From Takakia lepidozioides (taxonomy: Eukaryota; Plantae; Bryophyta): a stretch of 64,000 bases of DNA. Where the stretch lies: NCBI GenBank assembly GCA_030704615.1, contig CM060732.1:18228001-18292000 (forward strand), written 5' to 3'. The position numbers were made by a program, and so were the translations under genes. Numbering within the stretch: position 1 is the first letter of the stretch; every line of letters starts with the position of its first letter. The notes beneath the pieces were generated by a model. It saw only the letters and a list, made by a program, of their open reading frames with translations, had not been told where the DNA came from and searched no databases. This document shows, one piece after another, positions 9,101 to 38,270 of the stretch.

Positions 9101-10047
9101 TGAATCGCTTTTTAAGGTTGTCAAAGCCATAGTAAACCAACTCCATTGCAGTCACTTCGCAACACGGGAAGATGAAGGGCATCACTGATATTTGGGTGGA
9201 ACATTGCTTCTGAGCACTGGCCACTAATTAATCTAGAGCCTGTGACTGATGTGCAGTCTTACCTTCGTCCAAACGAGAACTTGCAGAGCCTGTTCCTTGC
9301 CCAAACATGATCTGGAAGCTCACCTTATCATCTCTCTTAAGGCACAGAGCCGTCTTACAAGTGGTCGCGGGTTCAAAACCACATAGGTGTATGTGGGATG
9401 TCACCCATTATTCGCAAATCATTTATTTACATCTAGTTCATACACTATGCTTGCCGAGAAATCTCGTCCCAGCATGGATTTCCGAAAGGCTCTGGCAGGA
9501 AGTTTTCAAAGATGCTTCACAACTGCTACTTCAACAAATGTTTTGCTATGAAAGGTTTACAATTTTGAGTCTTGTGTGTCTCATCTTGGGCATCTCTTTG
9601 TGCCAGTGCAACAAGAAGCACACGTATGTGTGCCCGGCCTACGCAGAGACAGGACAGTGCTCTGAGGGAGTCGCATGCAAGCTTCATCACCCCAAGAAAA
9701 AAGAGTCGTCTGCCCCGCCTCTGAACAGCCGGAAAATCAGCACCAAGCGCAAACGCCGCTACTTTGCTTCAGATCTACCTCTGAGGCCAAGGCCCAGGAA
9801 TGGGGGGACCCCCGTACAACAACTTGGCCTTGGAGAAGGGGAGTTGCTCAAACAAAATGATGAAACAGCAGAGTTCATCAGTCTCCCTGAGGTCGGATTA
9901 GATAATGATGAAGGTCTGGAGCCAGAGAGCTTGCAGAAAAAGAAAAAACCCGGGTTTTCTTTGTTGTTCAGGCAGGGAGGAGCCAATGAGGAGTTAGAAG
10001 CCTTGATCAAGCCTGCATTTTTGTTGCGAAGACACCAAGAGTCTTGA
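105..10047 (+). CDS. SOP1: Zinc finger CCCH domain protein 7-like (SOP1/ZC3H3-type nuclear exosome cofactor), multi-exon; the 5' end probably lies upstream of the window
   Basis: Phase-consistent GT-AG exons: <105-4806, 5180-5402, 6286-6436, 6686-6815, 7369-7443, 7673-7775, 8138-8408, 8790-8832, 8944-9047, 9607-10047. The translation has LKWTKSLEKQSK, YKMD, YVRVGNGNQLVRDP and five CCCH fingers (CQFYTRFGKC..CPYVH, CTMFLKGSC..CLLTH, CSYFLEGMC..CPYRH, CEGFLRGYC..CNKKH, CPAYAETGQC..CKLHH). The frame is open from base 3, so the true start may be outside the window. Confidence 0.85.
1115..1430 (+). repeat. Coding tandem repeat, 4 copies of about 72-81 bp, in the giant first exon
   Basis: Peptide units RLDQLLIPSSREHSLILSSRDKSDTQK / RLDHLLSPNSREHSLSSRDKSDTQK / RLLSPSSREQSLIISSRHNFDARK / RLDQLLSPSRRGHAPIISSTDKSDARK; all indels are in frame. 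Confidence 0.9.
5670..6000 (+). mobile_element. Intronic LINE 3' fragment (zinc-knuckle C-terminus of ORF2)
   Basis: CPLCWQPEDNIHFLIRCP matches the CxxC...HxxxxC motif at the end of non-LTR ORF2; it lies in intron 2 of the CCCH gene. Confidence 0.6.
7065..7265 (+). mobile_element. Second diverged copy of the same intronic LINE fragment
   Basis: cctgcacctctgttcaccaacttccaaaatctcgagtctgagcctaagccc...gattgatgcttgtttgaagg aligns by eye with 5779-5980. Confidence 0.6.
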
Positions 10048-13706: not shown

Positions 13707-15359
13707 CGGGTGGGGTTAGCGACGTCGCGGCGTCACTTAACCGCCCGTTTCGGCCACGGGGACGGCGCCATTTTTGCGACGCCCAGGCGTCGCTGGCCCG
13801 TCGCACTGGCGTCGCTAAAAAAACGTCGCAATTATGCAACAGATGGGGTCGCAAGCCCCCGCCCCCGCCAACAATGTCTGGACGTCGCTTTTCGGGCGGT
13901 CCATGGCGCTGGCAGGGGCCTCCTGCTAGTGACGCTCGGCCGTCGTTGCCCCCAGCCGACGGCATTGGATGGGGCGACGGATCAACATCGCATAAAAGTT
14001 TTCTTCTAAAATGCCCGGGCGTCGCATACAAAGAACAAAAAACACGTGGCGCAAGTCGAGTGTTAGGATCAGCGACGCCGTTGCGTCGCTGCTAGCAACT
14101 CCCGGGCGTGGCAAAGAAAAAACACCCGTCACAGCTAGAGTCAGACGCTGCGACACCCGGCCGTGGGTTCCCACGACGCGCTGGCGTCGCATGTTAGAAT
14201 TTAATCAAAAAATAAAAACACGTGGCGCAGGCCAAATGTTGGGATTAGCGACTCCATGGCGTCGCTGCTAGCGACCCCCGGACGAAAAAAAAACTGTCGC
14301 AAGGGGGGTCGGGCGTTGCTACCGGCGTGGGTTCTAGCAACGCCTGGCCGGCGGTTCTTGCGACCCCCACCAAAAAAACCCGTCGCAAGGGCGCTGGTTT
14401 TAGTGATGCCCTTCCGTCGCAAGGCCAACCTGGTTGGGGGGGGGATTGGGGATTGATTTTGGGGGTGAATTGGGGGTGGTTTTTGTCTTTTCCCTGGGTT
14501 TTTTTTGGGGTGTTGGGAGACCTTACAACTTCCATTGCTCTGATTTAGCAGGTACACAATTGAGCAAGCATGAATCGAGGATGAGGCCGGTGCGACACAT
14601 TAATAAGATGAAAGATGGAAAGATGGAAATATATTTACACGGAATGAGCTGAAATGCTTTGCTCACAAGGGTTCAGTAGGCTGACCCTGGGACCTACACG
14701 GATTAGGACTAGTCATCCTCATCCTCATCCTCAGAGGTGGACTCATAGCTATCCGATGAGCCTGATGACTCCGCGCCCTTTGCCTGAGCACCTAAAGCAG
14801 ACGGCATTCCCCTAAGTCCCACAGAGCTCTCATCCAATCCCTGGCCATGACCCCCCATCCATACTAGTGTCATGTAGTGCACTCATCCCCTCCGTGTTGG
14901 CCATGTTGTTCATGAGGAATATCCAACCATGCTCCTTGGCGTAGTTGTACTCTACCGGAGATGGCTTCCTCTCAAACATGCGTTGCTACACATGCCACAA
15001 ATTAAAGTCAGTTCTTCACGATGATGGAGCCAGAAAGAAGACATATCAACAAAATATATAGGGAAGTATGACTTACAAATCGCAAGATAAAACCTTTGGA
15101 TCCACCGGGGCCCCACTTGTGTGTGGATTCGTGCTTGTCAAGGTGGACTGTTGTTGTTTCGCGTGTCTGCTCAAATTTGGTCTTCTTTGCCGCATCATTA
15201 GCGCATCCCACGATACATATGCCCCTCCCCCCCCAATAATTAGTGAATTACACACATACGTTGCATCGAATCCACCTCATTAATGCACATGCAACAAATG
15301 GAAGGTGAAATGATTCAAGGATTTGCCAACCTGTGTAATTCCAAAAGGTGGTTTGGGTT

Positions 15360-15616
15360 GGGCCCCCTTTTCCATTGCCCTCCGAATGATCTCTCTGGCA
15401 CGGTACCTCTTGTCCTTCAAATTCCGTCCCACCATCTCCATCACCCTTGTGTCACTCCAATTGCCCGGAAACCGGCGGTCTAACTCACGGGCATACGCCT
15501 GCTTCGCGCCAAAGTGTTGATCAGCCCACTCAATGTGCCAAGGGAACCACCGCGCTGCGAGTTCAAAGACTGGCTTCTTCGTAGCCTCCCATAACGCATT
15601 GCAGGGGTCACCATGG
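15360..15616 (-). pseudogene. Downstream half of the CACTA TnpA-like ORF split by the Gypsy element
   Basis: Removing 15617-26368 and one ATGG copy restores the in-frame reading ...IVVPPVEVNCH-GDPCNALWEATKKPVFELAARWFPWHIEWADQ...; family assignment is by resemblance only. Confidence 0.65.
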
Positions 15617-15974
15617 TGTCAAGTTAAATAAGCACAGTGTGAAAACAGCTAGAATAAAACTAGTTATTTGTATTTAACACTTGGATTTAGGTCAAGTGTT
15701 AAATCAGGTATCAAGTTTAGTTTGACACCTGGTCTGTCTTATCTTCACGAGAGCGGCAGTCGCGCGGCTCATCTCTCTCGAGTTGAGCCTGCGCGACCGA
15801 GCTCCTGCATTGTTGAGGACTGAGTGTGCTTATGATGGGAGTGTAGGTTGTTGTGGGGTGGAGTCCCCATAGCTTGGGGTGCCCCTGGCTCGACTTCTAT
15901 TTTAAAGAGTGACCTTGAGGGATTGCATATTTCTTGTGTTGAGAGTGTGTGTCCTTTTACAAGTTTGTTTATCA
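15617..15974 (+). repeat. 5' terminal repeat X1 (358 bp)
   Basis: Nearly identical to 25928-26282; begins TGTCAAG and ends TTATCA; differences are mostly 1-bp indels. Confidence 0.95.
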
Positions 15975-15988
15975 CTCGAGAGAGATGA
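15974..15988 (+). promoter_or_regulatory. Self-priming primer-binding site
   Basis: ACTCGAGAGAGATGA directly at the repeat end is the perfect reverse complement of 15769-15783 (TCATCTCTCTCGAGT); no TGG tRNA-type PBS is present. Confidence 0.8.
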
Positions 15989-16869
15989 CCGTTATCTAGG
16001 GTGCTGGTGCTAAGCTAGATACAATGTTTGTTTTAGCATTATTATAATATATATCTTGGGGCGGGAGTCCATCTGGCCTTGCTGTTTCGCTGGTCTGTGC
16101 GCAAGAGCATAGGTGCTGTACAGTCCATTAGAGGGAGAAGGAGAAGGTTGCAGAGATGGAGAAGGCAGCGGACAGGCATTGAGGGAATGTGGTGCTGGTG
16201 CTGGACTTCGGATCGCAGTGGGTATCACGATTTGCTTTTCTCTGCGCGTGGGCCTTCCTCCTCGAGACCTAGAGACTGCAAACCAGCGAGTGGAGCGATT
16301 TCAAGAGTAGATGCACTGCGCAGCACCTTCATGGCTTATGGACAGGCGGCCTGCTGTGATGTGGCCGTCTTTGCATGGAATCCAAAGCCAAGACTAGCTT
16401 GAAGTTCCATCAACTTGGTCTAATTCGCATCTCTCATGTTTTCCTGCAACGGGCATTGACGCCCACAATTTCCAGGGCTTGCACTGAAGCATTTCTAAGC
16501 TGTTCTTAGGCCACTAACACACCCTGTGTAGCTGCAGAAATTGTTCCCACGGGACCCTATAGCTTCACCTGTAAGGCTGCTCAACGCCTGAGCTTAGAGT
16601 ATGGTTGGATCACTTGCTCATTAAAGGCCCACAGGATCTCTACAAAAGGCCCCAGCCTGACCACCACCTGCTTGTGCCAGCTTGTTCAAAGATTTGCCCA
16701 GGTACTTTCCTTGTCTCTCAGCAACACTCTTTGTTTGCGGTAGGGCTTCCATTAGTAACTGGATCAACTGCCAAGCTTCCACCAGGGCACTTCTTCACAG
16801 GTAAGGAGTGGACAAAGGAAGAAGATCCAACACCCATTGATCAACCAGCAGCCCGTATAGCACCTCCGT

Positions 16870-16995
16870 CTAGCGCCACTGACTTCAACAGCAGGCTCAG
16901 CAGGCTTTGTCCATAGAGAATGTTCAATAGTTCAAACAGCTCAGCATCACTGGCCAGCTCCAGTACAGAGTGTAGCTCTGGATCAAATGCAGCTC
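16870..16995 (-). pseudogene. Captured fragment of a plant YaaW-like uncharacterised protein
   Basis: AAFDPELHSVLELASDAELFELLNILYGQSLLSLLLKSV resembles the FDPELRSVLELATDSELYEL motif of a conserved plant/cyanobacterial family (recalled, not searched). Confidence 0.5.
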
Positions 16996-17125
16996 CTAGC
17001 ACTGACTCTTTGCCAGTAAGCAGGTATATCTCTGCTGCTTTCTTGTCATGTTGTAAACAGCCTTGGAAGGTTTCAGACTTGGGGGAGTTTCAGACCTTGA
17101 GCTGGTCCACCTGTGACTTCTCGAC

Positions 17126-17475
17126 CTGGATGAATAGTTGTACGCTTCAGTCTGTGCTGGGTCAGCTGGATTTGGGCATCTAGCAGCTCCTGGATGCCAA
17201 CCAGAATTTGTTTCACGATGATGGCTGGTCTCCACCCAGAGTCCTCATTGAGGATAGAGAGGCACACTGTGCCTGACGGATACAGGTTCGGGTGAAAGAA
17301 GCCTGCGGGAAACTTGCACTTGGGTGGCTTACTGGGATAGTCCTCGCTGAAATGGATTGCAGTTGGGTAGAATCCCCCTTCCCAATCAGTCCCAGCTTTG
17401 CCAGGTAAAGTGCACTGCCAGATCATGAGATTGAGAGACCCGTCCGTCCCAGCCTCTGGCCTTGCCACAAAACCC
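17126..17475 (-). pseudogene. SCE1: Captured intron-less fragment of SUMO-conjugating enzyme SCE1/Ubc9
   Basis: GFVARPE...[16 protein letters not shown]...[71 protein letters not shown]; lacks the N- and C-termini, has frameshifts and no introns. Confidence 0.92.
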
Positions 17476-17910
17476 TCGGATGATATTGAAGAGCATAAAT
17501 TCCAGCAGCGCTGTTCTCAATGGCAGCAATGTTGCCCTGCAAACTGGTGGCTACGACGTGAAAGCCTGGTGAACGTTAACTGCCTCATCACTATGACTCA
17601 TCCACACGACCGGGTTTGAGAAGCTCTCTGCATCACCATATAGTTTACTATCCTTCACAGCAGCTATTTACATGCGCCCATACTCTTGGCTCTCCGCCTG
17701 CTTGACCTCTCCTCCCAGCACTTTGACAATAAGGTGCAGCCCGTAAAACGCCAAGCACTACGATCCCATGATTCCTTGTGTACTCGAAGAAGCCATCAGG
17801 CACAGTTGGAGAGCCCTCTTCATGGACAGAACGGGGTCCACCTGAGAGAATTATAACGGAGGGATTGAGCCCCTGAATGGCTTCCAAGGGGGTACCAGCA
17901 GGTAAGCAAA
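17476..17910 (-). pseudogene. Captured fragment of GMP synthase (glutamine amidotransferase domain)
   Basis: [60 protein letters not shown]; frameshifted. Confidence 0.85.
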
Positions 17911-18232
17911 AGGGGTGTGTTTGGATCCCCCCCAACACCTGCATGCTTGACTGTGCGCCATGTTGGTTTTGTGTGGGCGCTTGCTTTCATAGGGATTAGG
18001 CCGGATTTGATCACCGGTCAATCCTAGAGTATGCTGTCGGTGGTGAGGCTGGAGTGATGACCAGCAAGACCACCAGTGTTTCTTCTATGGTGAGGCTGGG
18101 TTGATGACCAGCCAACCATAGGAGTTCTTGCGGTGGATGCAGGTGCAGGTGCCCTGAGCCACTGGGATATGACCCTTAGACTGCAACAGGTGCCCACCCG
18201 TGTCACTATTAGATTAGTACTAGAGCCTTATA

Positions 18233-20435
18233 GTGTCACTGGAGGAGGTGCACATTGTGAGTGTCATTACGGAGTTACCCAAGGGTTTTGAGGGGAGTAC
18301 GGCTACAGGCAGTAACAGTGAGAGTGGGTTCACAAGACGAGGTATTCGGTTCAGACCACCTTCACCGCCACCCTCAATTACTGTAGAGTCAGACACAGGC
18401 TCGGAGGCTTCATCAACAGGTGTGCACTTTCATTCGCCATTGTTGTGGGACGACATGGAGGAGATGTATGGAGCTACCAAGGGGCCTCGTAGGTACTCTG
18501 GAGCTGTGGGCACAATCGAGTTGGATGACTTTATCCAGGAGTTCGACAGCTGGTGTGATTTGCAGCAGATGCGCAATCCACATCTATTCACCCCATTCAT
18601 GGCGTGGAAGGGACTGTTCCAGCATTTGGAAGGCCCGCCTATGGACGATTACCACGAGTTCAGGCGAGAGGACATGAAGCAGAGATTGAGGAGTGGAGGA
18701 TGTATTGGTCACCTGACTACATCTCCATTACTCGAGGCATGACGCGACCAGTAGCTGCATCAGTACCAATAGCTCCCACTGCCAGCACTAGTAGTGGAGC
18801 AGGTAGTGCTGGTACTTCTGCAGGTGGTACCAGTTCAGAAGGTGCTACTACTCCTCCTGCCACAGCTACAACACATGTGCCTAGATTCAACCCGGTGGTG
18901 GAGTTCTTCCAGGAGTTGCGGAGGAACTACCAAGGTGTACGGACAGAGAAGCTGCGAAGTTTGCAAGACTTCCAGCGCAAACCCAGTGAGAGCCTGCGAG
19001 AGGCGTACACTCGTATGAGGCGCTTGATAAGTGTGACCCAAGGGGTTACTGAAGCTCAGGCAATCCAGTTTTGGTATGGAATTCTGGACAAGGAGCTCAA
19101 GAGAAGGGTGCGAGATGCAACTCTGTTACAAGCAGCCCAACCCACATTAGCAGATGTGTTTCTGCTGGCTGAGCGGATTGAGCTCAACATGGTGGAGGAA
19201 CGAGTTGTTACAATTGGATTTGGCAAGGACATGCCTGTACGGGGCACAGCTGTCAGCCCACAAGCACAAGGGACTGCCCAACAGCGTGGTCAGGGGGCAA
19301 GGTTGCCCAGCCCAAGTTCCATGGAGCTTACAGGGGCCTCAGGTGCAAAGGCCCGTGGCATCTTTTGCAGGCCAACAGCAACCAGGGGTGATATGTTGGA
19401 CATGTGGAGGACCCCATGTCAAGAGAGATTGCCCAGAGAGTGGCAGAAGGCCGGCACAAGCACAGCCTGCACAGTTGCAGTGTGGGCATTGTGGCAAATA
19501 TGGGCATGGAGATGCCCAGTGTTATGACTTACATCCTGAGTTGCGCCCAGGCCAGTTCCAAGGGAACAATGGTGGCCGGGGGCGAGGTGGACCAGCCCAA
19601 AGAGGACGAGGTGGTCGGGCACGAGGTGCAGGCCAAGGGCAACCTCCACATGGCCAAGGACGCGGAGGTCAGGGTGTTGACCAAGGCATGGCCAATCGGC
19701 TTCAGCAGCTAGAGCAGAGGATCGCTGCCATGGCTATAGCTCAGGCGGTACCGGCTCCCAGGCGGGATGGCCCACCTCCTGCTCCTGAGGGAGGAGATAT
19801 GGGCGGAATGGGATTCATGTGCGGAGCAGCACTACCATTAGAGCAGGTGGAGTCTGCTGCAGCCGTGACTCGAGGAGCAACACGAGTTCCTGAGCCACGA
19901 GGTGCCAGAGGTGGAGTTGGATCCACAACGTGGGAGGCAAGCCGCCAGGCAAGGCTGCCTCAGTCATTCACCTTGGCGGAGACAGTGTCAACGCCATCCA
20001 TGGCACCTAGTTCTCGCCCGACTGTTACCGAGGCGGAGGTTACTATGCCATTGGGGAGAGCTACCCGTGCAGCACTGACACCTACTACCAAGGCTAGTGC
20101 AGCCGGTGTGTTATTGGGAGCAGCCACCTCTGTGTGTCAAGCCCCACTGTTCTCGGCGACCATGATTGTGACGCCGGGAGTGAGACCAGCTGCAGTGTTC
20201 AGACTAGCAGCAACACTCTGCGAGAGTGGAGAGGTCACTTCATCTTCTGCGGAGTTAGTGGAAGGTGTAGTGGCAGAGGGATCCTCGGATTTGAGGGTCA
20301 AGACTGCCACGGCAGCGCCCTGGCAAGCTGCAGCTGCCAGATTGACGGAGCTGCCAGCTAGGCCAGCCTTTGAGCGCGCCATGGTGACACCTGGAGTTGT
20401 CTTGTTAGACAACCAGGGAGGCATTTTCACTTTGA
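18233..20435 (+). CDS. Gag (frameshifted over ORFs 18233-18742, 18604-19527 and 19154-20635)
   Basis: Retrotransposon-gag-like FQRKPSESLREAYTRMRRL; two zinc knuckles CWTCGGPHVKRDC and CGHCGKYGHGDAQC; RGG-rich segment. Confidence 0.8.
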
Positions 20436-20830
20436 GTGGACCGGCAGGCAAGAAGTACCGGCCCACTGCGGGTCTTGTTGGACTCAGGAGCCCAGCCACT
20501 GATGTTGGGCAGAGCTGCTATTGCAGGTTTGGGCCTCATGGAGGCGGATATGGAGCCTTGTCCTTTCCAGATACAGACATCTCTGGGAGGATCAGAGCAG
20601 GCTCGCGGCATGACACGGCATCAGTTGGCTATTAGACTGCAGCCGGATCATCCTGTAGATGGCTCAGTGATGCGAGCCAAGGCCATTGTGACAGACGCGG
20701 TCTCTTACGATGTCCTCGTTGGTGGGGCAGTGTTATACCCCATGGGCTTCACCCTGGATTTCTGGGAGGAGTCAGCATCCTACAGGCCTGGATGGCAGTC
20801 AGGGGATGGTCGCCGTGCACAGCTCCCTGT
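20436..20830 (+). CDS. Aspartic protease
   Basis: VLLDSGA catalytic motif and YDVLVG (DxLxG) motif. Confidence 0.85.
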
Positions 20831-21169
20831 GACATTCATTGGGGGTATTGCAGCTGCTCAGCGGGGCAAGATGCCAACACTAGCCGCCTTCACAGCTGCA
20901 GTCAGCTGGCCTGGAGAGTTGCTGGAAGGCAATGCCCATGCAGAGGATGTGCCACCTCCAGCAGACAGGATGACATGCATGGTACGGCGGAGTTGCCTGC
21001 CATGGTTGCTCACACTCCGTTGTGGGGGTACGAGCAAGGATTTGCAGCACGCTGCTGATGGACGGGTGCAACAAGCTTGGGTAGAAGCTTTTGTACCGTC
21101 AGGGGAGGAGGAGAGTGCGGTGATTGTACCAGGGCCACCTCAGTTGTCGCCATTGGACACCACACCTCT

Positions 21170-22185
21170 GTGTGGCAGCGGCCGGATGAAGGCATTTGCC
21201 TTCTGGACTTGTTTGGCGGGATCAGCACCGGATTGGCTGCTGTGCTACAGGCAGGTGTGCGGGTAAGGCGTTACCTGTATGTGGAGAGGGATGAGACTGC
21301 ACGACGCGTCTCACTGCGCCATGTGGCTCAGTTGGTACAGCAGTACCCTGACTTGTTGCCTGTGTCTGCAGTTCGTGGATACCAACAAGCCTTGCCAGCA
21401 GACATTTCCTTGTGGGGGGCGCAAGATTTGGAGCAGGTTGGCTCTATTGATCTGATAGTGGCAGGTTGGCCCTGCCAAGGGAATTCATCAGCCGGGCATG
21501 GCAATGGATTACGAGACTCGAGGACGGGTCTATTTTGGGAGATGGTGCGGATTTTGCGCTGCTTGCAGCTTCATCAAGCTGTATCTCCAGCATACATCTT
21601 GGAGAATGTACCACTGATGGGTGATTCTCGGGCCAGGGTGATGGCCAGTGTGCATCAAGTCCGGTCGTGGCTTGGGTCAGCAGTGTTGCTGGATGCAGCT
21701 GCAGTGGGGTCACGGGCTCATCGTCCACGACTATGGTGGACTAACTTGATGCCACCCGCACTGCTCAAGCGTGCATTTGATGGGGTGCAGCGGCCAGCAC
21801 ACCTCACCGTGGATGGCATTTTGGACACAGGAAGGCAGTCTCAACGTGTGAAACACGATGACCGTTCGCCTTTGGCAGTGGTCAACAGGTGGGTCAACCA
21901 CGAGCAGCATTACCTACACTGCTCAGCTTCCCAGGATCCCATGCTTTTCGGGATGGTGGACCTGGCCTCCTGTGGGATGCTCAGTTGCAGCAGTTAGTGG
22001 AGCCTAATGCCGACGAGCGAGAGCGGGCTATGGGGTTTTCCACTGGGACCACGGCGGTGCCTTCTCTTTCTGAGGCATCACGTCGTCAGGTGTTGGGGCA
22101 AGCAATGGATCTCAATTGCTTGACCTGGATTGTCAGCTTGGCTATGGCTGAGCAACGTAGAGTGCGGAGTGCACACTTCCCTTGA
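21170..22185 (+). CDS. DNMT3-like C5-cytosine DNA methyltransferase domain embedded in pol
   Basis: Motif I LDLFGG (21203), II VERD, IV GWPCQG (PC at 21470), VI ENV (21602), VIII RAHRPRLWWTNL, IX ERERAMGF, X RRQVLGQAM; one frameshift near 21890. Confidence 0.9.
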
Positions 22186-22559
22186 CGGTCTCTCTGCCTA
22201 CCGAGACGGTACAGGACAGCGAGTGGGGGCGAGCTGGTGAGGACCACGAGGTGTAGACATCCATGGCACATGTGGGAGGTGCTCGAGGTTCAGAGGGAGT
22301 TGGCAGCGAAGGCAGCTGTGATGGATGAGGTTGGGGATTCTTCTCGGGATGAGGAGGTTCTCAATGATGAGATGATGGGGCAGGATGAGGCCTTGTCATT
22401 GACTGAGCAGGAAGGGGGTACTGCTCAAGAGGTTGCAGCATAGCAACCACGGGACGGTCCTCTACCTCTAAGCCCACTGGACTTAAGGTTGCAGTTACGG
22501 AGGACAATTGGGAGCCTGACATTGGACCCATTGTCACCGGAGGAGAGAGAGACGACGTA

Positions 22560-23945
22560 TACGGCGGTTCCTGAGGGCTTACAGGAATTGCTTTGCCTTC
22601 AGTTTGAAGGACTTGGGAGCACTGAAGGGTCAAGAGATCCGTATTGAGTTGGCCACTGACACGCCAATCTTTCGGAGACCCTATAGATACAGTGACATGG
22701 AGAGGTCTTTGATTCAGATGAGGACTCAAGATCTCTGGGAGGCAGGTTTGGTGGAGCTCTCTGGTGGAGAGTATGCTTCAGCCACAGTGATGCCAGCTAA
22801 GAAGGATGTCTATGGCAATTGGACGGAGAGACGTATGTGCGGTGATTACCGGCCTGTAAATCGTCAGACCAAGTCCGATAGGTATGCCATGCCAACACCA
22901 GAGGAGATCTTTGATGCCATTGGGCATTCCAAGGTCTTTAGCACGTTGGATTTACGATCCGGATATCACCAGTTGCCGATCAAGGAGGCGGATAAGCAAA
23001 AGACGGCATTCTGGGGGATCAATGAGCACGGGAAGGATTGCCTATACCAGTGGCGGTTCTTACCATTTGGGCTTAAAAACGCTCCCGCTGAGTTTCAAAG
23101 AGTCATGGACAGGATTCTAGCAGGGGTGGAGTTTGCTCGGTGCTACATAGATGACATCATCATCTTTAGTGCTACGGTGGAGGAGCATGAGAGACACCTT
23201 CAGGGGGTATTTGAGCGCTTGAGGACGCACGGATTGAAGTTACATCCGGGCAAGTGCAAGTTTTTCCACAACCAGATTGAGTATCTGGGTCACATGATAT
23301 ATCCTGGAGGATTGGGGGTACAGCAGACTAAGGTAGAGTCCATTGCACAGGTTCCACGCCCCACGGATGTGAGCCGAGTTCGAGCTTTCATGGGGTTAGC
23401 AAACTATTACAGACGGTTTGTTAAGGGATTTAGTGCCATTGCAAAGGCTCTAACCAAGCTGACCAAGGTGGACCAGGAGTGGCAGTGGGAAGATGAGCAA
23501 GAACAAGCTTTTCAAGAGCTCAAGGCGAGGTTGACCTCGGCGCCCATCTTGAGACGACCTATCAGGGGGCGTCCTTTTCAGCTGCATACAGATTGAAGCA
23601 TGCTGGGGCTTGGAGCGGTGCTCACACAGGTGGATGATGAGGGAAGAGAGTTCGTAGTGGCTTATGCTAGCCGCTCGAACAATGCTGCAGAGTCTAAGTA
23701 TAGCTCATATGAGGGAGAATGCTTAGCTGCAGTGTGGGCCGTGGCACACTTCAGGTGCTATCTATACGGCAATCTCTTCACCCTTGTCACGGATCACCAA
23801 CCACTCAAGTGGTTGATGGAGTCAGACAAGCTTACGGGGAAGCTTGCACGGTGGGCACTCATCCTTCAAGAGTATGACTTTCAGGTGGTGCATCGACCGG
23901 GTTTGGTCAATCGAAATGCAGATGGGTTGAGTCGCAATCCATGCA
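22560..23945 (+). CDS. Reverse transcriptase and RNase H (Ty3/Gypsy type)
   Basis: RMCGDYRPVN, LDLRSGYHQ, LPFGLKNAP, YIDD, YLGH; RNase H HTD, YEGECLA, TDH, NADGLSR. TGA at 23594-23596 where TGG (W) is expected. Confidence 0.97.
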
Positions 23946-24329
23946 CGAGCCAGCAGGATGACACTGGAGCTCGGTGGCATGGTGAGACGGACGAGGAGAT
24001 GGTGCCCGGATGGCATGCATCTGCATTTCTGTGTATCTTGGCAGCGGAAGGCCAGGTTGGACCTACAACAGGGATGACGGTAGATCAAGTGTCTGAGGAC
24101 CCTGAGGCCAGCAATGAGCAGGGTGGCGCCAAAGATATACATGAGGATTCAGTTGTGTTGGACTACCTCCGCAGTGGAGACACGGCAGCCACTATGACTG
24201 CCAAGGAGAGGGATCGGATCCTACAACGAGCCAAGAGGTTCAGGCGGGAGGGGACACACCTGCTCCGAGTGTGGGAGGATGGTCGAGTGAGGATTGTGCC
24301 TCACCAAACACAGCGGGCACGGTTAGTGC

Positions 24330-25380
24330 GGCATGCCCATGAGGAGTTGGGGCATTTTGGGGTGCGACGCACTCATAGTCTACTGAGGGGCAGTATGGTG
24401 GCGTGGTATGCACACAGAGGTGTGCAACAATTTGTGGCTAGGTGCATGGTGTGTGACAGGGTGCGTGCTTCATTCAACGCCCCTACTCCACAATTGCACC
24501 CTCTTCCGATCATGGGATTGGGCTACAGGTGGAGTCTTGACTTCGCAGGGCCGTTGCCACTGACCATGCGCCACAACAAGTACGTGTTGGTGATGGTGGA
24601 GCACTTCTCCAAGTGGATTGAATTGGTTCCATTGCCTGATAAGGCTAGTGAGGGAGCTGCGTATGCATTCCTGGATTGTGTGCTTAGCCGATTCGGTGCT
24701 CCAGCTGAGGTACTCACGGACCAAGGGAGAGAGTTCTTGGGGGAGTTTCAGGCTTTGTGTGACAAGGCCTTGATAGACCACCGCACCACTTCTCGGGATC
24801 ATCCTGAAGCCGATGGCTTGGCAGAGAGAGTTGTTCAGACAGTAAAGAGGGGTTTGCGCAAGTATGGCTTGCAGAAGGGACACCTAGGAGATTGGGACCT
24901 TCAGTTACCCTGGTTAGCCATGGGCTACAGGTTCAGCAAGCAAGCATCACTTGCCTCCTTCTCACCTTTACTTCTTCTCTTTGGCCGAGAGCCGGATTTG
25001 CCTACATCCATTCGCAGAGAAGCTGCTACAGTTCTTAACCTTGACGATCCGGACGTGTGGGCACGTGCATGTGAGCAGCGTGCAGAGTTGTTCAAGAGAG
25101 TCATGCCATGGCTTTCGAGAACCTTGCCATTGCACAACACCGTGATACGTTGAGGTATGCTACCATACGTGGTGGGGGCTATCGTCCTGGGGTTCGGAGA
25201 TTCAACCCTGGTGACTATGTCTATCTGCAGCAGACTGCTCCTACGACCCTGGATGTGACTGCAAGACGTGTTATTTTGAGGGTCGAGAGGTCTTGCCCTC
25301 AGGCCGTCTTGGTCTTGGAGGGTCGGGATGGCAACACTTGGAAGGACCATGTGCGTAATTGTGCGCCATGTCACCTTCCG
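24330..25380 (+). CDS. DDE integrase
   Basis: HAHEELGH...CMVC zinc finger; WSLDFAG, LTDQG and GLAERV catalytic residues; FNPGDYVYL C-terminal segment; frameshift near 25110. Confidence 0.95.
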
Positions 25381-25429
25381 AATGTCGATGGCAGGATTGA
25401 CCCAAACCTGGCAGTGGTATCTGCAGGTT

Positions 25430-25570
25430 TGAGGTGCATGTTGTGTGGGTCTGCTAAAGGGGCAGCCACCATGCTGGTATGTGATCGGTGCTCTAGAGGT
25501 TGGCATATGGGATGCTTGACTCCACCTCTTGAGATGGTTCCGGATGGGGATTGGTTAGTCCACATTGCAT
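25430..25570 (+). CDS. PHD finger at the integrase C-terminus
   Basis: CMLC...MLVCDRCSRGWHMGCLTPPLEMVPDGDW, then tta-gt-cca-cat-tgc, one base short of L-C-P-H-C (C4HC3). Confidence 0.9.
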
Positions 25571-25823
25571 TGGATAGTGGGAGTGGATACAACCATGGAG
25601 GCTAACAGAAACGCAAGGCCCAGCTACTAGGAGACCTTGAACACACGAGATCTGGGCTCAAGTCATAGATTGCAAGACGGCGACTAACGATGGGGCTACT
25701 CTTGTACCCGGCCTCTTGGTTGATAGAGTTTGAGCTCGATAAAGACAGTGATAGAGGACTTAGTACGGCTGTGGCTATTACATCTTGTAGCTATCTGGAG
25801 GTAGGGGGACCTATCCACCAGCT

Positions 25824-25833
25824 AGGGGGGGAA
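25824..25833 (+). promoter_or_regulatory. Polypurine tract
   Basis: AGGGGGGGAA immediately followed by TG at 25834. Confidence 0.85.
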
Positions 25834-26368
25834 TGTGGGCGATTGGCTAGACTACTTATTGTGCATATATGTGTGGTGTGGTTTGGACAGCGATGTAGTT
25901 GTGTAGCGTATGTATGCGCACGACAGCTGTCAAGTTAAATAAGCACAGTGTGAAAAACAGCTAGAATAAAACTAGTTATTTGTATTTACACTGGATTTAG
26001 GTTCAAGTGTTAAATCAGGTGTCAAGTTTAGTTGACACCTGGTCAGGTTTATCTTCACGAGAGCGGCAGTCGCGCGGCTTCATCTCTCTCGAGTTGAGCC
26101 TGCGCGACCGAGCTCCTGCATGTTGAGGACTGAGTGTGCTTATGATGGGAGTGTAGGTTGTTGTGGGGTGGAGTCCCCATAGCTTGGGGTGCCCCTGGCT
26201 CGACTTCTATTTTAAAGAGTGACCTTGAGGGATTGATATTTCTGTGTTGAGAGTGTGTGTCCTTTTACAAGTTTGTTTATCATTGTGCTAGACTACTTTA
26301 TTGTGCATATATGTGTGGTGTGGTTTGGACAGCGATGTAGTTGTGTAGCGATATGTATGCGCACGACA
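25834..26368 (+). repeat. 3' terminal region Y1-X2-Y2
   Basis: Y1 25846-25925, GC spacer, X2 25928-26282, TTGT, Y2 26287-26368; Y1 and Y2 are near-identical copies of about 80 bp. Confidence 0.92.
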
Positions 26369-26600
26369 ATGGCAATTGACCTCCACCGGTGGCACCACAA
26401 TCTTTGCCAACTCCACATCCTCTATCCCCCGAGAATTTTTCTTCTTCTTCCCACCCTCTCCTTTCTTTGTAGCCTCCTTCCCCTGCTCCTTTGTTACCCC
26501 ACTGCCCTCCCCCGCATGCACACTCACCCCTTCGTCTCCGTGGGACTTCTGCTTCTTCTTCTTCTTCTTCTTCTTTTTCTTCCCCTTCTCCACGACCCCC
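26369..26600 (-). pseudogene. Upstream half of the split CACTA TnpA-like ORF
   Basis: Lys-rich stretch followed by NSRGIEDVELAKIVVPPVEVNCH, which continues in frame at 15612. Confidence 0.65.
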
Positions 26601-27439
26601 CTTCCCTTCCCTTCCCCGCTACTTCCTCTCTCTCCTTCTCCATCTCCCTTCTCTCTCTCTCCTCGGCAGCCCCTTCATTGATGGTAAAAGGGACCTCGGG
26701 AGGTCGAGGCCTCTTCTTCTTACCTTTGGTGTTCGGGTCCTTCATGAACACCACTTGCTCTCCCTCATTGGCAACCCCACCGGACTGCACCAATGAGGCC
26801 AAGAATGTTGCTGCCTCCTGAAGACGAATAACCCCCCCAAATTCAAAACAAGAAACAAATAACAAAGACATACATGCATGCAAAGGAAAGGACAAAACAT
26901 GGAATGGGCAAGGTGCGACAGTTGTACCTTTGCAAGCTTGGCCGACTTGGCCCCGGTGTCACCCGATGTGGCAGGAGTCCCCGTTGCCGGATGTGCCCGG
27001 GCTATCCCCTCCCGGAGCGCCATTGGAAGTAGATTCCAAATGTCGACCATAGCCGGCGGCGGCGCCCCGTAGTCCATGCCCTTTTTGCTGACCGCTCAGG
27101 CTAGAGCAGAGGTCGGTATAAAAGCATTACCAAATGCCTGCAAGTAGGCTCTATGAAATGAGCTGCTCCCGTACCCGCACAAATTTCACAAGAGGAGGCG
27201 CAGCAGAGGTGTATGACTCTACAATCCTTCCCGCATGAACAATTACTGAGGCACGCTAGGCTCTCCACCGGCCCGTAGCTCCTTCCCCCCCTCCCCTCCC
27301 ACAAATGTTCTGCAAGTTCGAGGGCCTCACCCGGCTTGACTAATTCGAGGCGCTTCCTCAACTCAGCCACCTCATTGGCCCTCCTCATCTCCTCTCCCTC
27401 ATCCTCAACATTGGGCTAGGAACGACCACTTCCAAAGGC

Positions 27440-28885
27440 TCTTGAACCTGACCTTGGGCCTTGGCAAGTGCAGCCTTCGCTGCGGAGGAAGGGGTCGCTA
27501 TAGGGGTGACATCCAAAAGTTGCCCATACCGGGCCCCCGAACGGGTGATGTACTTGCAAAGGTATATTTCGGGTGAAGGCAACCTACGGTGGCTCAGTGA
27601 TGACCAGATCATGGAGTGGATTCAAGGAACTTGTGAAAAGACAGTTTGTGCCTCTCAACGCGTCCTGGCTCGCCCATGACAAGATGATGAACTTGAAGCA
27701 AACGGATGACATTCGGGAATATGTTCAGGCTTTCAATGTGCTATTGCTCGAAGTCGCGGATATGGCGGAACCAGAAATAACTCTGTGGCGGGATTGGCCC
27801 CATGGGCCAAGCGGAAGTTGGAGGAGATGCCACCAAAGACTTTGAACGAGGCAATTGAAAGGGCTGAATGCTTCTCAGATGTCCCTAGGGGCGAAAGACA
27901 GGGCCGTACGAAGCTGAACCACAAGAAGGTCTGGCGGGAGGGTGACTCCTTTCGACCGAAAAAGAAGTGGGATAGGCCCCGCGGCGACAATGGCACATGG
28001 AAATCGAAAGGAAGGCCTTTGCACGTCAAGGCGGCAACTGGTGCTCCGAAAGAAAAATCAGGTGCGGCGGCTTATGGCGGACAGAGAAGGCGACCTTTGA
28101 TGGGGTGTGCTTTAATTGCGGGGAGCCCGGGCACATAGCCAAGAGGTGCCTGAAACCCTGACAATTGAACATGACTCGGGCAACCACGAAATTGTCCGAA
28201 GACTCCATCAGCCGCTTGGTGGAGATGGTGGTTGCCAAGACTGGCAAGGTAGACAACTACTCTTGTGAGTTATACCATGAGACGGGAGCTTTGCGTAAAT
28301 GAAGGCAGCTAATGTTCGTGTGCAGGATAATTTCCAGAATTGGGATCAAAATGGGATGACACAATGGCATGTGATTACACAAGATGGGATCAAAATGGAT
28401 GACAGAAAGGTGATGGCGATCTTGGACTGGGAACCTCCGACTTCGGTCTCGGGAGTGCAATCTTTTCTGGGACTCGCCTCCTACTACCAAAAATATGAGA
28501 GAAATTTCGCCAAGATCGCGGGGCCGCTGTCAGACCTTTTGTGTAAGTCCAAGGTATGGGTATGGAACACTTTTTGTGGCCAAGCTTTTGCCGAGTTGAA
28601 GCAGCGGATGGCGGAAGCTCCAGTCTTGAAGATCCTGGAGTTCGATCGTCCATTTGAGATTGGCCTACGCATGAGAAAGAAATGAAAGCGATGGTGCATT
28701 GCCTTGAGCTTTGGCGCCACTATGTTGGTTCCAACCCGGTGAAGGTGTTCACGGACAATGTCACGGTGAAAGTTTTTGCCACACAGCCTAAGTTGTCCCC
28801 AAAACAAATTAGGTGGCAAGAGACTTTGGCAGTGTTCGACGTGGATATCTAGTACAAACCGGGACGGGACAATGTGGTGCCGACT
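27440..28885 (+). mobile_element. Degenerate, internally deleted second Ty3/Gypsy element (gag, zinc knuckle, RT-RH pieces)
   Basis: KRQFVPLN..LKQTDDIREYVQAFN; CFNCG.PGHIAKRC near 28107; AILDWEPPTSVSGVQSFLGLASYY; EKEMKAMVHCLELWRHY, TDN, YKPGRDNVVP; stops and frameshifts, no LTR pair recognised. Confidence 0.85.
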
Positions 28886-31520
28886 TCCTCCAAGTCCCGA
28901 CCAAGGGTGGAGCCTCTCAAGCTCCAACCAGTGCACTCTTTTTGGCCACTTCAGGGCCAAGGAAAGATCTCCCCAGAGGATCGAATCGCTTTACTGCAAC
29001 AACATTGCTTGCGACCGCTCATGATGCCGCTTTTTGGCATCACCTTCAGCAAGGGTTCACCTTGAACCCTTTTTTTTACTAGGAAGATAACCTTGAACCA
29101 CCGTGCGCCCCAATCACTACAATTGGGTCCGCTTGGTGGAATGCTGGCCTGAGGTATGGGAACACGCCGAAGCCGCACTACGACTTCCTCCCAAGGCTAC
29201 ACGATTATAGTACGTGAACGGAAGCACGTAGCTTCCGTGTTAGCCCGCACTACAAGGCAACCCCCTCGGTAGCGCAGTTATAGTACGCGCACGTGCCAGG
29301 TGCGCACTAGCACGTGAACTCCCAAAGAAGACGCAAGTTTTCTTGCCCCTTGGATGGGAGTCACCCGATTTCGGCGCTGCGCAAACACACCATTTATCCA
29401 ATTTACCTCTCCCACTTTTGTAAGCTAGCATGCATTCTACACACTAGCCAACCATACCATGCATCATCATTCCAAACAAAATAGGAAGCACAACATTTGG
29501 AAACCATTTCATTTATAAACAAAATTTATATAACACAAGTTTTTGCAATCGGATTCCTGAGCTAGCTAAGCCGGACTAAGCATGCATTTCCTCCCCCACA
29601 ATCCAAGGTTGATGTCCCCATCACGCTTCTTCCGCTTTTGAGGTCGCCCTTCGAAAGCTGCAACCGCCTCGGATGCGTTTCCCATTTCTGAGGCACACAC
29701 CCAAGTTGCCTCCACTTGATGATAGCCCTTCCGTTTCACGGGATACTTTTTTTTTTTGTGCTTGGCAAGACTTTGCTTTGGTTAAGGTAGCAGTGTTGTG
29801 GTGCTGGCGGAGACCTCCCTGCACGGTTAGGCTTGTGGAGAGATGACGACTCTCCCCCAAACAGTAAAAAAAAGTTCTTTTTTGTTTGTCTTGCTTCCTT
29901 GCTTTCTTTGGCATTCTCTGCGCTTAGATTGAAGTGTATTTGACCTCGATAGCAAGTGTGGAAGCCTGCTACTCACCTCGTGCATCCTCACTAACTCACA
30001 ATGCATTGTGGTTGTTTTTGGGACGGGCACAGGTGAGGGCTTCCACTTAATATTCTAATGTCTAGGTGTTGTTGGATGCCAAGTGGGAATGCAGAACAGG
30101 GGAAGGAATCGCTTGCTAGGGACTCATCTTAAAATGTTGAAAAACTAAACTACTCTATGGTTTTTCTTGATCCTACCTCTTTCCTTCCTTTATTTTTGAA
30201 GAACAAGTGTAATGCTTTCTACGATGGGCTATTTTCGGCCCAACCAGTGGAAGACCTCTGTTTTGTTGTGACAGCCGGGTTTATGATGGCTTGTGTGTGA
30301 GACACACATCTGTTTTCCAGGCCCTAGTTTGCTTTGCTTACCTTATGGTAGTTGGAAACAAGTTGAGAGGCTGCAAGAAACTGTTTGTTGCAGCTATTCG
30401 GGTATCCATGTTGGTCCCTGTTATGTTCCAACCCGGATGGCTTTGTTAGCTAGATGCTCAGGCCAGGGTAAGTTGAAGATTCTGCCTGTGGATATTCGGC
30501 TGACAATGAAATATGGCAGCAATATATAACTGGTAACTGGTTTTTGAGGCAGCAAGGGTGGTCAAGTGGAAAATACCCCATGGACATGGTATAATGACAT
30601 GGTCAAATGTGGAATGATGTGAATAGGGTGTACTGACAGTATTATATACTGTCACATGATGTGTATGCAGTCCTTTATCTTTACCTTGCTGGGTCATGAA
30701 CTTTGATTTTCAGCTGTAGCAAGAAATAAAAGTATAGGGGTATTCTGGAAAACTTACCAGACATATCCACCTCCCCTGTGGGGGCAAGTTGTGCTGCAGA
30801 CCAGTCTAAGCAAATACTGGCAGGGCAAGGTATTTAAATCTGTGATATCCAAGTATTCCTTTCTATCTTTAAGAAAACCCTCCATGACACCCGTGGGGTT
30901 TTAGTAAGTATGCTTGGATTACAGCTTGCAGACAGTAAATCTGTATGATTATTTGACCTGCACCACATCAAGGCCAAAATATGGCCAAGTACCCGCCATC
31001 CCACCCAGACCTCTGAATGTGTATCATGATCATGAATGATGGGTCAATCAGCATCAGTGGCATACTCTTTGGGTTATGAATAATACTGACATGAACACAT
31101 TACTGTGCATGGATGTAATTCTGGATTTTCTAAGCTTGATGATTGATGGATGGTGCCACTGTTAAGTGGCTGATATGTCTGATTATTCTTCTTATTCATG
31201 ACAACGACCCTAGGGGTCCTGTCTTTGTCTTGACATGACAAAAAGTATCTTCCCTCTCTCACTGTCCAGTATGCTTAGTGATTTATGCATACACTATCCA
31301 TTGATTACCATGCTGATTTTCCAGCCTTTGTGCAGAACCCCACCAAGATCACTCCGGAATGGATTGATGAGTTGCAGACCTTGGGGTACTAGCTCCGGCT
31401 GCTTCCTCCAATCCCTGTTATTCAAGTTCTGCAACCATGGTTCATACCAGGTATGTTTTTCTCCAGCAGACCAATGGTTTGGGCATGGAGAATAGATAAG
31501 CACAGGGCATAACAGACTTA

Positions 31521-35459: not shown

Positions 35460-38270
35460 TTGAACCTTGCGCGTGCAGTGGAGGTTCCAGTGATCATGAG
35501 CTTAGAGACGGGTCAAAGAGTGTTTCTTACTCTTCCCGGGTCTTCATCTCCAGTAGCAACTGGGGACCGCCTTAATGTCTCCAGGGTTGGGACCTGTCAT
35601 GGACACCAATTATCTTCGTCAACCATTTCAGTGGTTCTCATCTCCTGTGATGAAGCACACACATTATGTTCTCTTCCTTATGGACATATGGATGCTGACA
35701 CCTTGAAGGAGGCCATTGGGACCCCGGTGGTGTGGAACGTTGGCGAAGTTCATGCGGAAGATAATGAGTATCAAGGGCATGACATGAATCCTGATTTTAC
35801 GTCGGAGACAAGGCGAAAAACCTTCGGAGGACTTGGCTATCCGTACTTCGTTTTGGGGACCCACTTTCGATGAGAGGAGAGAACATGGACTAAATGTTTC
35901 ACAACAACTTCACATGCTGGAAGGGACCTCTGGCAGGGCATACGTTACGATTGAGGGTGTAGATGTTTGTGAGACTGCGTGGTGGACAATTCACGGAATT
36001 GGCAAGTCCACATACATGGAGTACAAAACAGGGTTGGTTGTCAAGTCTCCATGGGAACCGTGGAGTGAAGAGGCCACGCCCACAGACGCTGCAGGCAAAG
36101 GGTAACATTATGTCCATTATCAACGGAAATACTGACCTCATGCCCCATAGGACAAGGTGCATTGGGGAGGGAAGGAGGGATACTTTGAGAGTCTTACCAT
36201 CTGAAATGAACTGGAAGCGAATACGAGAAGAGTCCAACGAGGTATGAAATCTCCCTCCTTCAATTTCATTCTTGGAAGTTTTTTCTGATTCAATGTGGAT
36301 GACCTTCCCTTGGAATTTGTCTCTTTCGACTGTGGTTCTAGTTTCATGAACCTTCACTGTCCAATGGACGTTCTTTTCCTGACCCTTCCTGATTGTAATA
36401 GACGAACAGACTTTTCGGGTTGAAATGAGTCTCGCAGTCGGCTGTTAGCCGCATCCGGAGTTGGATAACTAACGTGGAGGCTCGTAAAACTGGGAGCACA
36501 TTTGCGAAGTGCACGGAGAGTGAGATGTTAAAGGACCCGATCAAAAAGTCTGTCAAGAGAAGTGCGGAACATGTGTCACACAAACGAGCGCTTGATAAAC
36601 ATTTGAGGCACCAAGAGTCGTGTAGAAGACTGTACCATAGCTGGAGGAATGAGTCTGTTATGATTCCGGAGGAGTTTCTCTGTATTATTCACGACAAAAT
36701 GGATCATAGGAAACCAGCTATTCCAAGGCTCCAGACTCCAAACAAGATGATTTCTGGATTGGGTCAGCTTCCAGTCTCACTAACGGGAATAGTCACGCAC
36801 AGACGGTGATGGAGCTTACGGTTAGTATTCTCTTGAGTTTTGGAAGGGAAATTCAAACTTTACAATTGGTTCTTTGGCACGTTGCCTACGCCAGCTGGAG
36901 AAGCCAACCTGTCGCGAGTCTAGGAACATTTTGGATTATGGACTTCAAAACGAGTTTTTCGAATCACTTTTATGTTTGGATGCTCTTAAACCCTGCAGGC
37001 CGGAAGACAAACGTGGTGCTCGTCCACTTCCGAGAAGACTCTACTTGCAAATGGACAACTCCGCGAAGGACAATAAGAACAGATGAATGCTTGTTTTTCT
37101 ATCCCTCCTGACCGCCAAAGATGTTTTTGAAGAGATCCAGCTAGGGTTTCTAATGGTCGGACATACCCATGAGGACATCGACTGGTTCTTCAACTACCTT
37201 TCGAAGAAGCTAAAGGAACGAATCACCTACATTCTTTCGGATTTGATGAGGTCATTCATGACCTCGCAAGATCTGCAGTTCATTCCACAGATTATTCAGG
37301 AGGTTCCCGACTTCAAGAATTTTGTAAATGGTTGTATTCTGGATGGAAATGAGGCGTTGGTCGGGATTTCGGAGATGCACATCTTCCGTTTTTTTAAGGA
37401 TGCGGAGGGTTGGCCCATCATGAAGTACAAAAAGTCAGCTACTGATTCGGATTGGCTTCCAACAAACAATAGCGTGAAGATGTGGAAGTCCAATCCTGAC
37501 GGGACTCCCAAGCTCCCTGAAGGAGACCCAGACGCCGTTCCAAGGAGACCTATCTGGGGAGTCGGGGACGACTCCTCCGAAAAACAGTCATTCATCAAGA
37601 ATGGAATAAAAAAATACAGGGATTTTTGGACGAAATGAATGATGCTTGACGATCATTACAGAGGTCGAATGGAACAATACGACCAATACTGGGGAAACAT
37701 TCTCGCCGAGCTGGATAAGCCAATTCCAGAAACTCTCGAGCGTACTCATCTGCTTGAGGGATTCTGGCCGAAAAAAAATTGGTCCACGAATCATCGCAGA
37801 GATGGAATCCATCCACAGATAGTGCCAGATGTGGAAGAAGAGGATGAAATCCCAGAACCTTACTGTGGCCCGAGGTGTGAGCGTCCAAGGATACCCTTGA
37901 ATCCGTTCAAGGATATTGAGAAAGGGTTTTTTGTGCTCGTTCGCCCTCATGACCCAAGTTCGTGCCCGGTCTGGATGAAGGTAGCAATATTTGACGTGAT
38001 CCGCGAAAGGGAGGATCCTAATTTTAAGAAGGTGAACCTGGTGGAGTGGTGGAGACGGAGAAAATGTGGTAACCCAACAAACTTGGAAAGGTACAGGGAC
38101 TGTTGGTCAAAACTTTGGGAGTATAACTTGTCAGATCCTCCTCAATGGATCCACGTGAACAATGTTATGTGGACAATGCCTCTATGAAAAAATACGACAA
38201 GGAATAGCACTAAGAGAATTACAGCCGCCGAAGCAGTGAAGGCGTGCGCTAATTTGGAGGAGGCTAATCG
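35460..38270 (+). mobile_element. Degenerate DDD/E transposase, Sola1-like (DUF7869-type)
   Basis: VCETAWWTIHGI, FAKCTE, HLRHQESCRRLY, CIIHDKMD, LYLQMDNSAKDNKN, FLMVGHTHEDID; several stops and frameshifts; TIRs not identified. Confidence 0.7.

Follow-up and report, generated by a model that had tools for sequence, protein, structure and literature searches.

The genome of Takakia lepidozioides holds a complete copy of a bryophyte Ty3/Gypsy family that carries its own DNMT3-like cytosine methyltransferase (MTase), and the MTase-bearing family is conserved in Sphagnum, Marchantia, and Calypogeia. The copy lies on the forward strand at 15617-26368 of a stretch of 64,000 nucleotides (contig CM060732.1 of assembly GCA_030704615.1, positions 18,228,001 to 18,292,000; hereafter the window), to which all coordinates refer. 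We somewhat favor an interpretation in which a first open reading frame (ORF) encoding Gag, protease (PR), and MTase ends at a conserved UAG, readthrough of which gives reverse transcriptase (RT), integrase (IN), and a PHD finger, with the MTase packed at the level of capsid and likely methylating the element's own cDNA. Gypsy-borne DNMT3 is a known kind (PMC5890265), represented here by a land-plant family conserved in mosses and liverworts. Within the literature searched, three features were not found in print: the stop-ended Gag-PR-MTase ORF, the self-complementary primer site, and the split repeats with a palindromic terminal joint.

Since 2018 it has been an open question why transposons carry their own MTase; of the plant-side enzymes only one was tested, and in yeast it was silent. 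Apparently whole Gag-PR-MTase frames are present in the model plant Marchantia polymorpha (P0080 = Mp4g09160), and the conserved stop predicts abundant MTase in particles; this prediction focuses the question on the cDNA. Likewise, the anatomy of the repeats offers a concrete, testable route by which an element with an integrase may come to have DIRS-like split repeats.

Anatomy and Age of the Insertion

The element stands between 4-bp target-site duplications (TSDs; ATGG at 15613-15616 and the same four bases at 26369-26372), and a contig of run X1 that joins 15615 to 26375 as an empty site has the flank-to-flank length expected for a 4-bp duplication. Its left terminus is repeat A1 (15617-15974; 358 nt, beginning TGTC and ending CA), which would hold part of U3, R, and U5. 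Directly 3' of A1 lies the primer-binding site (15975-15988), complementary to 15769-15782 within A1, where the predicted self-primer, the 5' end of the RNA, is its exact reverse complement. Toward the right end a polypurine tract (25820-25831), found before B1 in relatives as well, stands immediately 5' of repeat B1 (25832-25925, ending GACA), the presumed start of U3; repeats A2 (25928-26282) and B2 (26283-26368, the right terminus, again ending GACA) complete the element, all on the forward strand. The joint of B1 and A2 is a palindrome, GACA-GC-TGTC (25922-25931), composed of the right terminus, two bases, and the left terminus, and is a predicted internal integrase site. The order gag-PR-RT-RNase H-IN, the D-D-E integrase, the primer site, the purine tract, the TG...CA termini, and the short TSD are thus those of a Ty3/Gypsy LTR element, except that the body is not flanked by two whole LTRs, the repeats being split as A...B-A-B. 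For elements of this build, LTR finders designed around a pair of flanking LTRs would set the ends in the wrong place.

Between A1 and A2 there are 4 substitutions and 9 single-base gaps, and between B1 and B2 no substitution and 2 single-base gaps over the compared 79-81 nt, as against 26 substitutions and no gap between the A repeats of a related locus, L042 (26/339; 7/113 for its B repeats). About a dozen frame breaks interrupt this copy, in addition to an in-frame TGA at 23594-23596 in RNase H. A contig spanning 22066-24242 has 5 differing letters and 6 gaps relative to the window, and at the window's frame breaks other copies in contigs differ from it by indels. From these comparisons the insertion is young, and many of the breaks are likely long-read errors, that is, indels of the assembly.

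The flanks (15000-15616 and 26369-27000) are themselves repeated DNA, as shown by X1 depth in the tens of thousands and by the empty-site joint, and the element therefore jumped into an older repeat. To the right of the insertion, at 27549-29100, lies a decayed second Gypsy element with gag and RNase H pieces. Elsewhere, at 41515-42471 and 37087-37635, the window holds DDE_Tnp_1_7 transposase pieces, of piggyBac type, together with a DUF7869 ORF. It also holds two host genes, a CCCH zinc-finger gene with an open exon of 1612 codons (3-10044) and a Rab-type GTPase gene with introns (56900-58300). The CCCH exon has 4 protein matches, of which the best named is from Sphagnum jensenii (39%, E 3e-32), with Marchantia at E 3e-3; by the sequence similarity of this one gene the host would be a bryophyte and likely a moss. 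No tRNA genes were found within the window.

Coding Regions and the Methyltransferase Domain

Gag, with zinc knuckles and a spacer (18455-20465), has its start aligned to residue 1 of Marchantia P0080 and is broken near 18667, 19345, and 20470. The aspartic protease (20466-20850, LLDSGA at 20475) has a weak Pfam match (E 0.02), and its region is 48-74% identical to the matching part of bryophyte relatives in most compared rows. RT and RNase H (22577-23950, YIDD at 23144) include the in-frame TGA; they are followed by an integrase with an HHCC zinc domain and a D-D-E core (24332-25290; rve and Integrase_H2C2 Pfam matches) and, at its C-terminus, by a PHD finger (25420-25555; Pfam PHD, E 6e-9). 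All lie on the forward strand. Pfam gave no tyrosine recombinase match in the element's scanned ORFs and no chromodomain match in the element. The nearest solved relatives of the PHD finger are those of CHD4, DPF3, and KDM5B, which read unmodified H3K4; a PHD finger with that specificity would pair with a DNMT3 that has no ADD domain.

The 5' leader contains intronless pieces of host genes on the reverse strand (16220-17915, edges approximate), which are rare in the family. They comprise a GATase/GMP-synthase-like piece (GATase, 17648-17983, E 0.047), a ubiquitin/SUMO-conjugating E2 (17073-17513; UQ_con, E 2e-30), and at least two unnamed pieces. One X1 contig joins 16219 to 17915 on opposite strands, and another copy or allele may thus carry the cassette inverted.

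In this assembly the MTase (21170-22165) is split between two frames, being broken near 21170 and 21885. Its motifs I-X follow in canonical, non-permuted order on the forward strand: LDLFGG (21203-21220), YVERD (21278-21292), GWPCQG (21464-21481, catalytic Cys at 21473-21475), ENV (21602-21610), RAHRPRLWWTNL (21713-21748), ERERAMGF (22015-22038), and RRQVLGQAM (22081-22107). PF00145 scores 49.5 bits (E 5e-13, cut-off 22). An earlier reading of these letters, made without database searches, had reported C5-MTase motifs in this order on the sense strand with an intact catalytic Cys, and every element of that description is borne out. Its placement of the domain in the pol region holds insofar as the domain lies between the protease (20475) and RT (23144), but not in the sense of a continuous Pol, from which the stop at 22441-22443 separates it.

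The assignment to DNMT3, rather than to the permuted DRM or the MET1/CMT enzymes, had likewise been proposed from the letters and is upheld by P0001, an intact relative that is 71-79% identical to the window's two MTase parts. Against solved sequences P0001 matches DNMT3A at E 6e-12, a tobacco-type DRM entry at 1e-8, and HhaI at 4e-3. Its structure model, built from 86 sequences with a pLDDT of 94 (54 for a model from 15 sequences), has DNMT3A/B as the top Foldseek match (E 8e-19). In a wide structure search the model matches DNMT3B with Z 28.3 (rmsd 2.6 over 279 residues) and DNMT3A with Z 27.1, followed by M.MpeI (24.9), DNMT2 tRNA enzymes (20.8-22.1), DNMT1 (17.8), and DRM2 (9.4); in the ESM Atlas one Streptophyta cluster and two phage clusters tie at 0.96, a result that does not discriminate between them. 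In sequence and in modeled fold the domain is thus DNMT3-like, closest to DNMT3 among solved MTases. The catalytic residues are nearly invariant across 157 full domains (Cys of motif IV in 156, Glu of motif VI in 157, both Arg of motif VIII in 156), and the Cys is present in all 29 distinct locus copies as well as in the window. The middle of the domain has no sequence alignment with DNMT3A, and target specificity therefore cannot be read off it.

Family, Layouts, and Selection

With the N-terminal part of the MTase as query, 79 proteins were found. Of these, 74 reach E<=2e-13, and the proteins with a named source come from Calypogeia, Marchantia, and Sphagnum. A search for longer relatives gave 58 proteins, among them the Marchantia Gag-PR-MTase ORFs P0080 and P0081 along with polyproteins from Chromochloris, Haematococcus, and Mesostigma; none of the named matches in either protein search bears the label Klebsormidium. 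A profile search returned 381 clusters at E<=1e-30. In viral and prokaryote collections 0 of 44 and 0 of 24 pattern matches were confirmed, in scans that need near-exact short motifs. Three Gag-PR-DNMT3 ORFs of Marchantia polymorpha are annotated as hypothetical (P0080 = Mp4g09160, P0081 = Mp8g17980, P0084 = Mp6g11220), and several Marchantia gene models bridge the conserved stop by apparent false introns.

Metagenome searches yielded 55 loci, or 43 distinct copies, with protease upstream in 38 and RT downstream in 37, the others being cut or truncated; found through the MTase, these loci are blind to copies that do not carry it. Free of that bias is the summed contig depth in X1, which is no copy number and which is alike over the MTase and RT-integrase (0.6-1.2 million).

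Between the window and 28 loci the MTase has a median pN of 0.21 and pS of 0.72, with dN/dS near 0.10 (RT 0.07, PR 0.14) at a dS close to saturation, and these ratios indicate that the domain is under purifying selection between lineages. Within the main group of copies dN/dS is 0.60 (PR 0.61, RT 0.46, IN 0.53), a ratio that reflects the decay of copies once inserted.

A midpoint-rooted tree of the 157 domains, in which one spliced gene model (P0092) is mislabelled, separates 47 of PR-MTase layout from 110 of mostly RT-RNase H-MTase-IN-PHD layout with support 1.0. Since the two layouts split in the tree, the domain either changed its place in the polyprotein a single time or was acquired in two separate captures. 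In the other clade, a large one (P0112-P0137, P0145-P0280), the MTase sits between RNase H and integrase, and 43 of 201 proteins have RT-RNase H-MTase-IN-PHD in one ORF; those of its members that bear a name belong to the chlorophytes (Chromochloris, Haematococcus), a group not among the lineages of the 2018 paper.

A Conserved Stop After the Methyltransferase

The Gag-PR-MTase ORF ends at an in-frame UAG with the 3' context CAA-CCA (22441-22449, forward strand), a predicted leaky stop. The end of the MTase and the start of RT share one frame in 27 of 36 loci. Among 30 distinct copies the stop column, always in the RT frame and 39 codons before the RT anchor, reads TAG in 23, TAA in 6, and TAC in 1, so that 29 have a stop; the next codon is CAA in 29, and the stop column is never CAG or TGG. 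No variant is listed at 22439-22449 in four runs, while 22437, 22438, 22450, and 22451 vary. From motif X to the protein end there are 98 residues in Marchantia P0080 and 100 in Calypogeia P0083, compared with 117-164 in the deeper clade; a fused form without the stop is seen in relatives P0128, P0150, and P0152. Folding of the RNA 3' of the stop gave no signal (z -0.1 to -1.8).

The sequence UAG-CAR-YYA is the TMV-type (type I) readthrough signal, as given in the consulted parts of PMC3159437. The window and 2 of the 30 relatives (L023, L052) match it exactly, and CAA-YYN follows in 29 of 30. The likeness to the TMV-type stop lies in UAG followed by CAA and a pyrimidine pair, whereas 25 of the 30 relatives differ from it in having CAA-CCC. 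Suppression of a stop in SIRE1 is cited in the part of PMC2194720 consulted.

Decay as the origin of the stop was considered and dropped. Methyl-decay does create shared stops in the family: TGA stands in 7 of 12 rows at a CGA site of integrase, and TAG in 9 of 30 at a CAG site of the MTase. Sense codons persist in such decayed columns, but in the linker column neither CAG nor TGG occurs in any of 30 copies, and decay is therefore rejected as its cause.

Self-Priming, Split Repeats, and a Model of Replication

The primer site and the site within A1 are complementary over 14 nt, a length that none of 2000 shuffles approached (0 reached 13; the longest was 10). Relatives have a different sequence at both places, complementary over up to 16 nt. 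Of 25 A-ends of loci, 3 rows (2 copies) match over 16 nt and 7 over 9-11 nt at the same site, and in the rest the match is shorter or elsewhere. Given the primer site after A and the purine tract before B, the working LTR would be B-GC-A, primed as in Tf1, and self-primed reverse transcription very probably gives a cDNA with this true LTR.

The integrated form is A...B-A-B, with a TGTC start and a GACA end. TSDs of 4 bp are found in the window, L042, L018, L027, L030, and L033, and with one mismatch in L016; L042 reads A...B-GC-A-B with the TSD AAGG. Only 4 B1/A2 joints were seen: those of the window, L005, and L042 read GACA-GC-TGTC, that of L046 reads GACA-AT-TGTC, and the joint occurs once within the window. 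That the B/A palindrome consists of both termini suggests that integrase may cut an internal site of a circle. Copies of the form A...B were considered as products of one-LTR circles, and this was dropped: L018 (A...B) and L046 (B-A-B) share a flank and are hence one locus in two forms, which gives no support for circle integration. Between these two the element is 91% and the flank 95-99% identical, which indicates faster decay in the element than in the flanking DNA.

Taken together, these features permit a model in which the RNA would start within A1 and end at the corresponding point of A2. With reasonable probability, most ribosomes would halt at the UAG and a few read through, after which the protease would free the MTase within the particle. 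The 5' end of the RNA would prime reverse transcription, giving a cDNA with the LTR B-GC-A. Ordinary reverse transcription would yield B-A...B-A, and the simplest route from there to the integrated form would be a two-LTR circle with a 2-base staggered cut at the palindrome. By a slight preference on our part, the ends would join and integrase would cut GACA-GC-TGTC in the upstream LTR, leaving CA-3' ends and 2-base overhangs and producing A...B-A-B with a 4-bp TSD. With even chances, the MTase would mark the cDNA before or at insertion, such that it arrives looking like host chromatin. Methylation of the cDNA would probably be at CG, by analogy with SymbioDIRS-Dnmt3 in yeast. The broadest form of this proposal, a widespread green-plant lineage with DNMT3 at capsid stoichiometry through a leaky stop, self-primed methylated cDNA, and circle integration by an internal palindrome cut, is doubtful as a whole; if true, it would describe an LTR element with an obligatory circular intermediate and self-written epigenetic marks.

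Alternative Explanations

That the MTase is a one-off capture of a host gene, or a nested insertion like the antisense pieces of the leader, is practically untenable. Captured host pieces do sit at 16220-17915 of the same copy, but their summed depth in X1 is 0.6-2.7 thousand, some 300-fold or more below that of the core, while that of the MTase is about that of RT. Further, the domain has the same position and spacing in relatives of three genera and, with 55 related loci and more than 100 related proteins bearing it at the same place, is collinear with them. The prospects of a single insertion, of a nested one, and of neutral evolution, any of which the sequence-only reading had named as fatal to its claim, are thus removed, the last by purifying selection between lineages. 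Less easily dismissed, although improbable, is the proposal that RT-integrase comes from a spliced or separately started RNA, or from reinitiation at an ATG after the stop. An ATG does lie two codons 3' of the stop in 27 of the 30 distinct relatives, a pyrimidine-rich tract ending in AG or AA lies 25-30 nt downstream, the context of most copies is the CAA-CCC noted above, and how Tca2 gets past its gag stop was left open in the parts of the literature consulted. However, the ATG is absent in the window (where the first Met after the stop in the RT frame is inside RT, at 22697), L023, L027, and L052; L023 and L052 have the candidate AG in a codon phase different from that of the main group, and in 10 of 30 copies it reads AA; the gene models that bridge the stop use different joints (P0084, P0088, P0090, P0108); and the coding sequence 3' of the stop is conserved in frame and in length. 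We regard readthrough as the likelier route, and on either explanation the MTase, judging from the arrangement of the frames, is made with Gag and not with RT.

For the repeats, a somewhat unlikely alternative dispenses with the closed circle, and invokes either a plus-strand jump from A to B followed by integrase trimming at palindromes or an RNA-templated B2 as in DIRS/PAT elements. Any route to B-A...B-A-B(-A) followed by a palindrome cut gives the same product, the A2/B2 joint is without the 2-4 bases that stand between the purine tract and B1, and the 2018 paper, in its consulted parts, likens such repeats to DIRS (PMC5890265). Against it, a primer site after A and a purine tract before B belong to an ordinary LTR cycle with the LTR B-GC-A, B1/B2 and A1/A2 diverge alike in L042, and the 4-bp TSDs and D-D-E integrase exclude the tyrosine-recombinase route; the circle remains slightly preferred. 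Similarly, the domain might be kept for another job, such as methylation of the insertion site or host DNA, methylation or binding of RNA, or nucleic-acid binding in the particle, which we consider unlikely. Observed/expected CG is 0.50 in the element, compared with 0.41 in the host exon and 0.38 in the captured pieces, so that depletion does not exceed the host level and CG depletion as a footprint of self-methylation was dropped. The Klebsormidium enzyme gave no methylation of yeast DNA, a result its authors call inconclusive, and the middle of the domain is that which does not align with DNMT3A. But the catalytic Cys, Glu, and Arg are near-invariant in 157 diverse domains, the modeled fold is nearer to DNMT3 than to the DNMT2 tRNA enzymes (Z 28.3 against 20.8-22.1), and SymbioDIRS-Dnmt3 domains methylate CG de novo (PMC5890265, consulted parts), points that stand against this alternative. 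Separately, CHG is not depleted in the element (17916-25830; 1.11) but is depleted in neighboring repeats (26001-30000, 38001-42000; 0.64-0.75), which may only reflect the youth of the insertion.

Comparison With Known Systems

Host DNMT3 enzymes (DNMT3A/B and, as described in part of PMC6453930, plant DNMT3 with DUF3444) share with the element's MTase the motif order, the catalytic residues, and, by the model, the fold (Z 27-28). At about 23% identity the element's domain differs from them in having no PWWP, ADD, or DUF3444 match, no introns, and inserts after motif II and in the target-recognition region.

With regard to priming, Tf1/Tj1 and plant Tcn1 likewise have a primer site complementary to their own LTR, according to the consulted parts of PMC4600332 and PMC6317226. 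Tj1, again from part of PMC4600332, further depends for its activity on an in-frame stop that precedes Pol; that stop ends Gag, whereas the one described here follows Gag-PR-MTase. Those elements have ordinary flanking LTRs and are without an MTase, in contrast to the present element, which has a PHD finger and no chromodomain match. The tyrosine-recombinase elements of the DIRS/PAT type, including SymbioDIRS-Dnmt3, share the split direct repeats and an inner joint that repeats the two termini; here, however, there are a D-D-E integrase, a purine tract, a 4-bp TSD, and no tyrosine recombinase match. In retroviruses it is the LTR ends themselves, and not an internal site, that make up the circle junction. 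Cutting of a palindromic circle junction, formed there by the LTR ends, has been reported for foamy-virus integrase (PMC1180852, in part).

In the literature searched, no land-plant Gypsy-DNMT3, stop after the MTase, or integration model of this kind was found, in agreement with the earlier view that this is not known as an established land-plant lineage; subscription papers, TE databases, theses, and supplements may cover them. The main text of a plant LTR survey (PMC6317226, in the part consulted) does not contain the words 'methyltransferase', 'PHD', or 'Marchantia', and two later papers, likewise in consulted parts, mention Gypsy-borne DNMT3 under 'streptophytes', one of them with reference to the 2018 paper. 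The closest known system by published description is KnitGypsy-Dnmt3 of Klebsormidium nitens (de Mendoza et al. 2018, PMC5890265, consulted parts, which describe neither a priming site nor a TSD, a palindrome at the joint, or a PHD finger), a Gypsy element with DNMT3, DIRS-like repeats, and Ka/Ks<0.2. The two share an intronless, non-rearranged DNMT3-like domain under purifying selection and the DIRS-like arrangement A1...B-A2-B, which is whole in the window and L042 and partly seen in L005 and L046. They differ in host, the present family being one of land plants, and in the organization of the frame, since its authors place the DNMT of KnitGypsy-Dnmt3 in one ORF with RT and RNase H, whereas in the bryophyte family a conserved stop stands between them.
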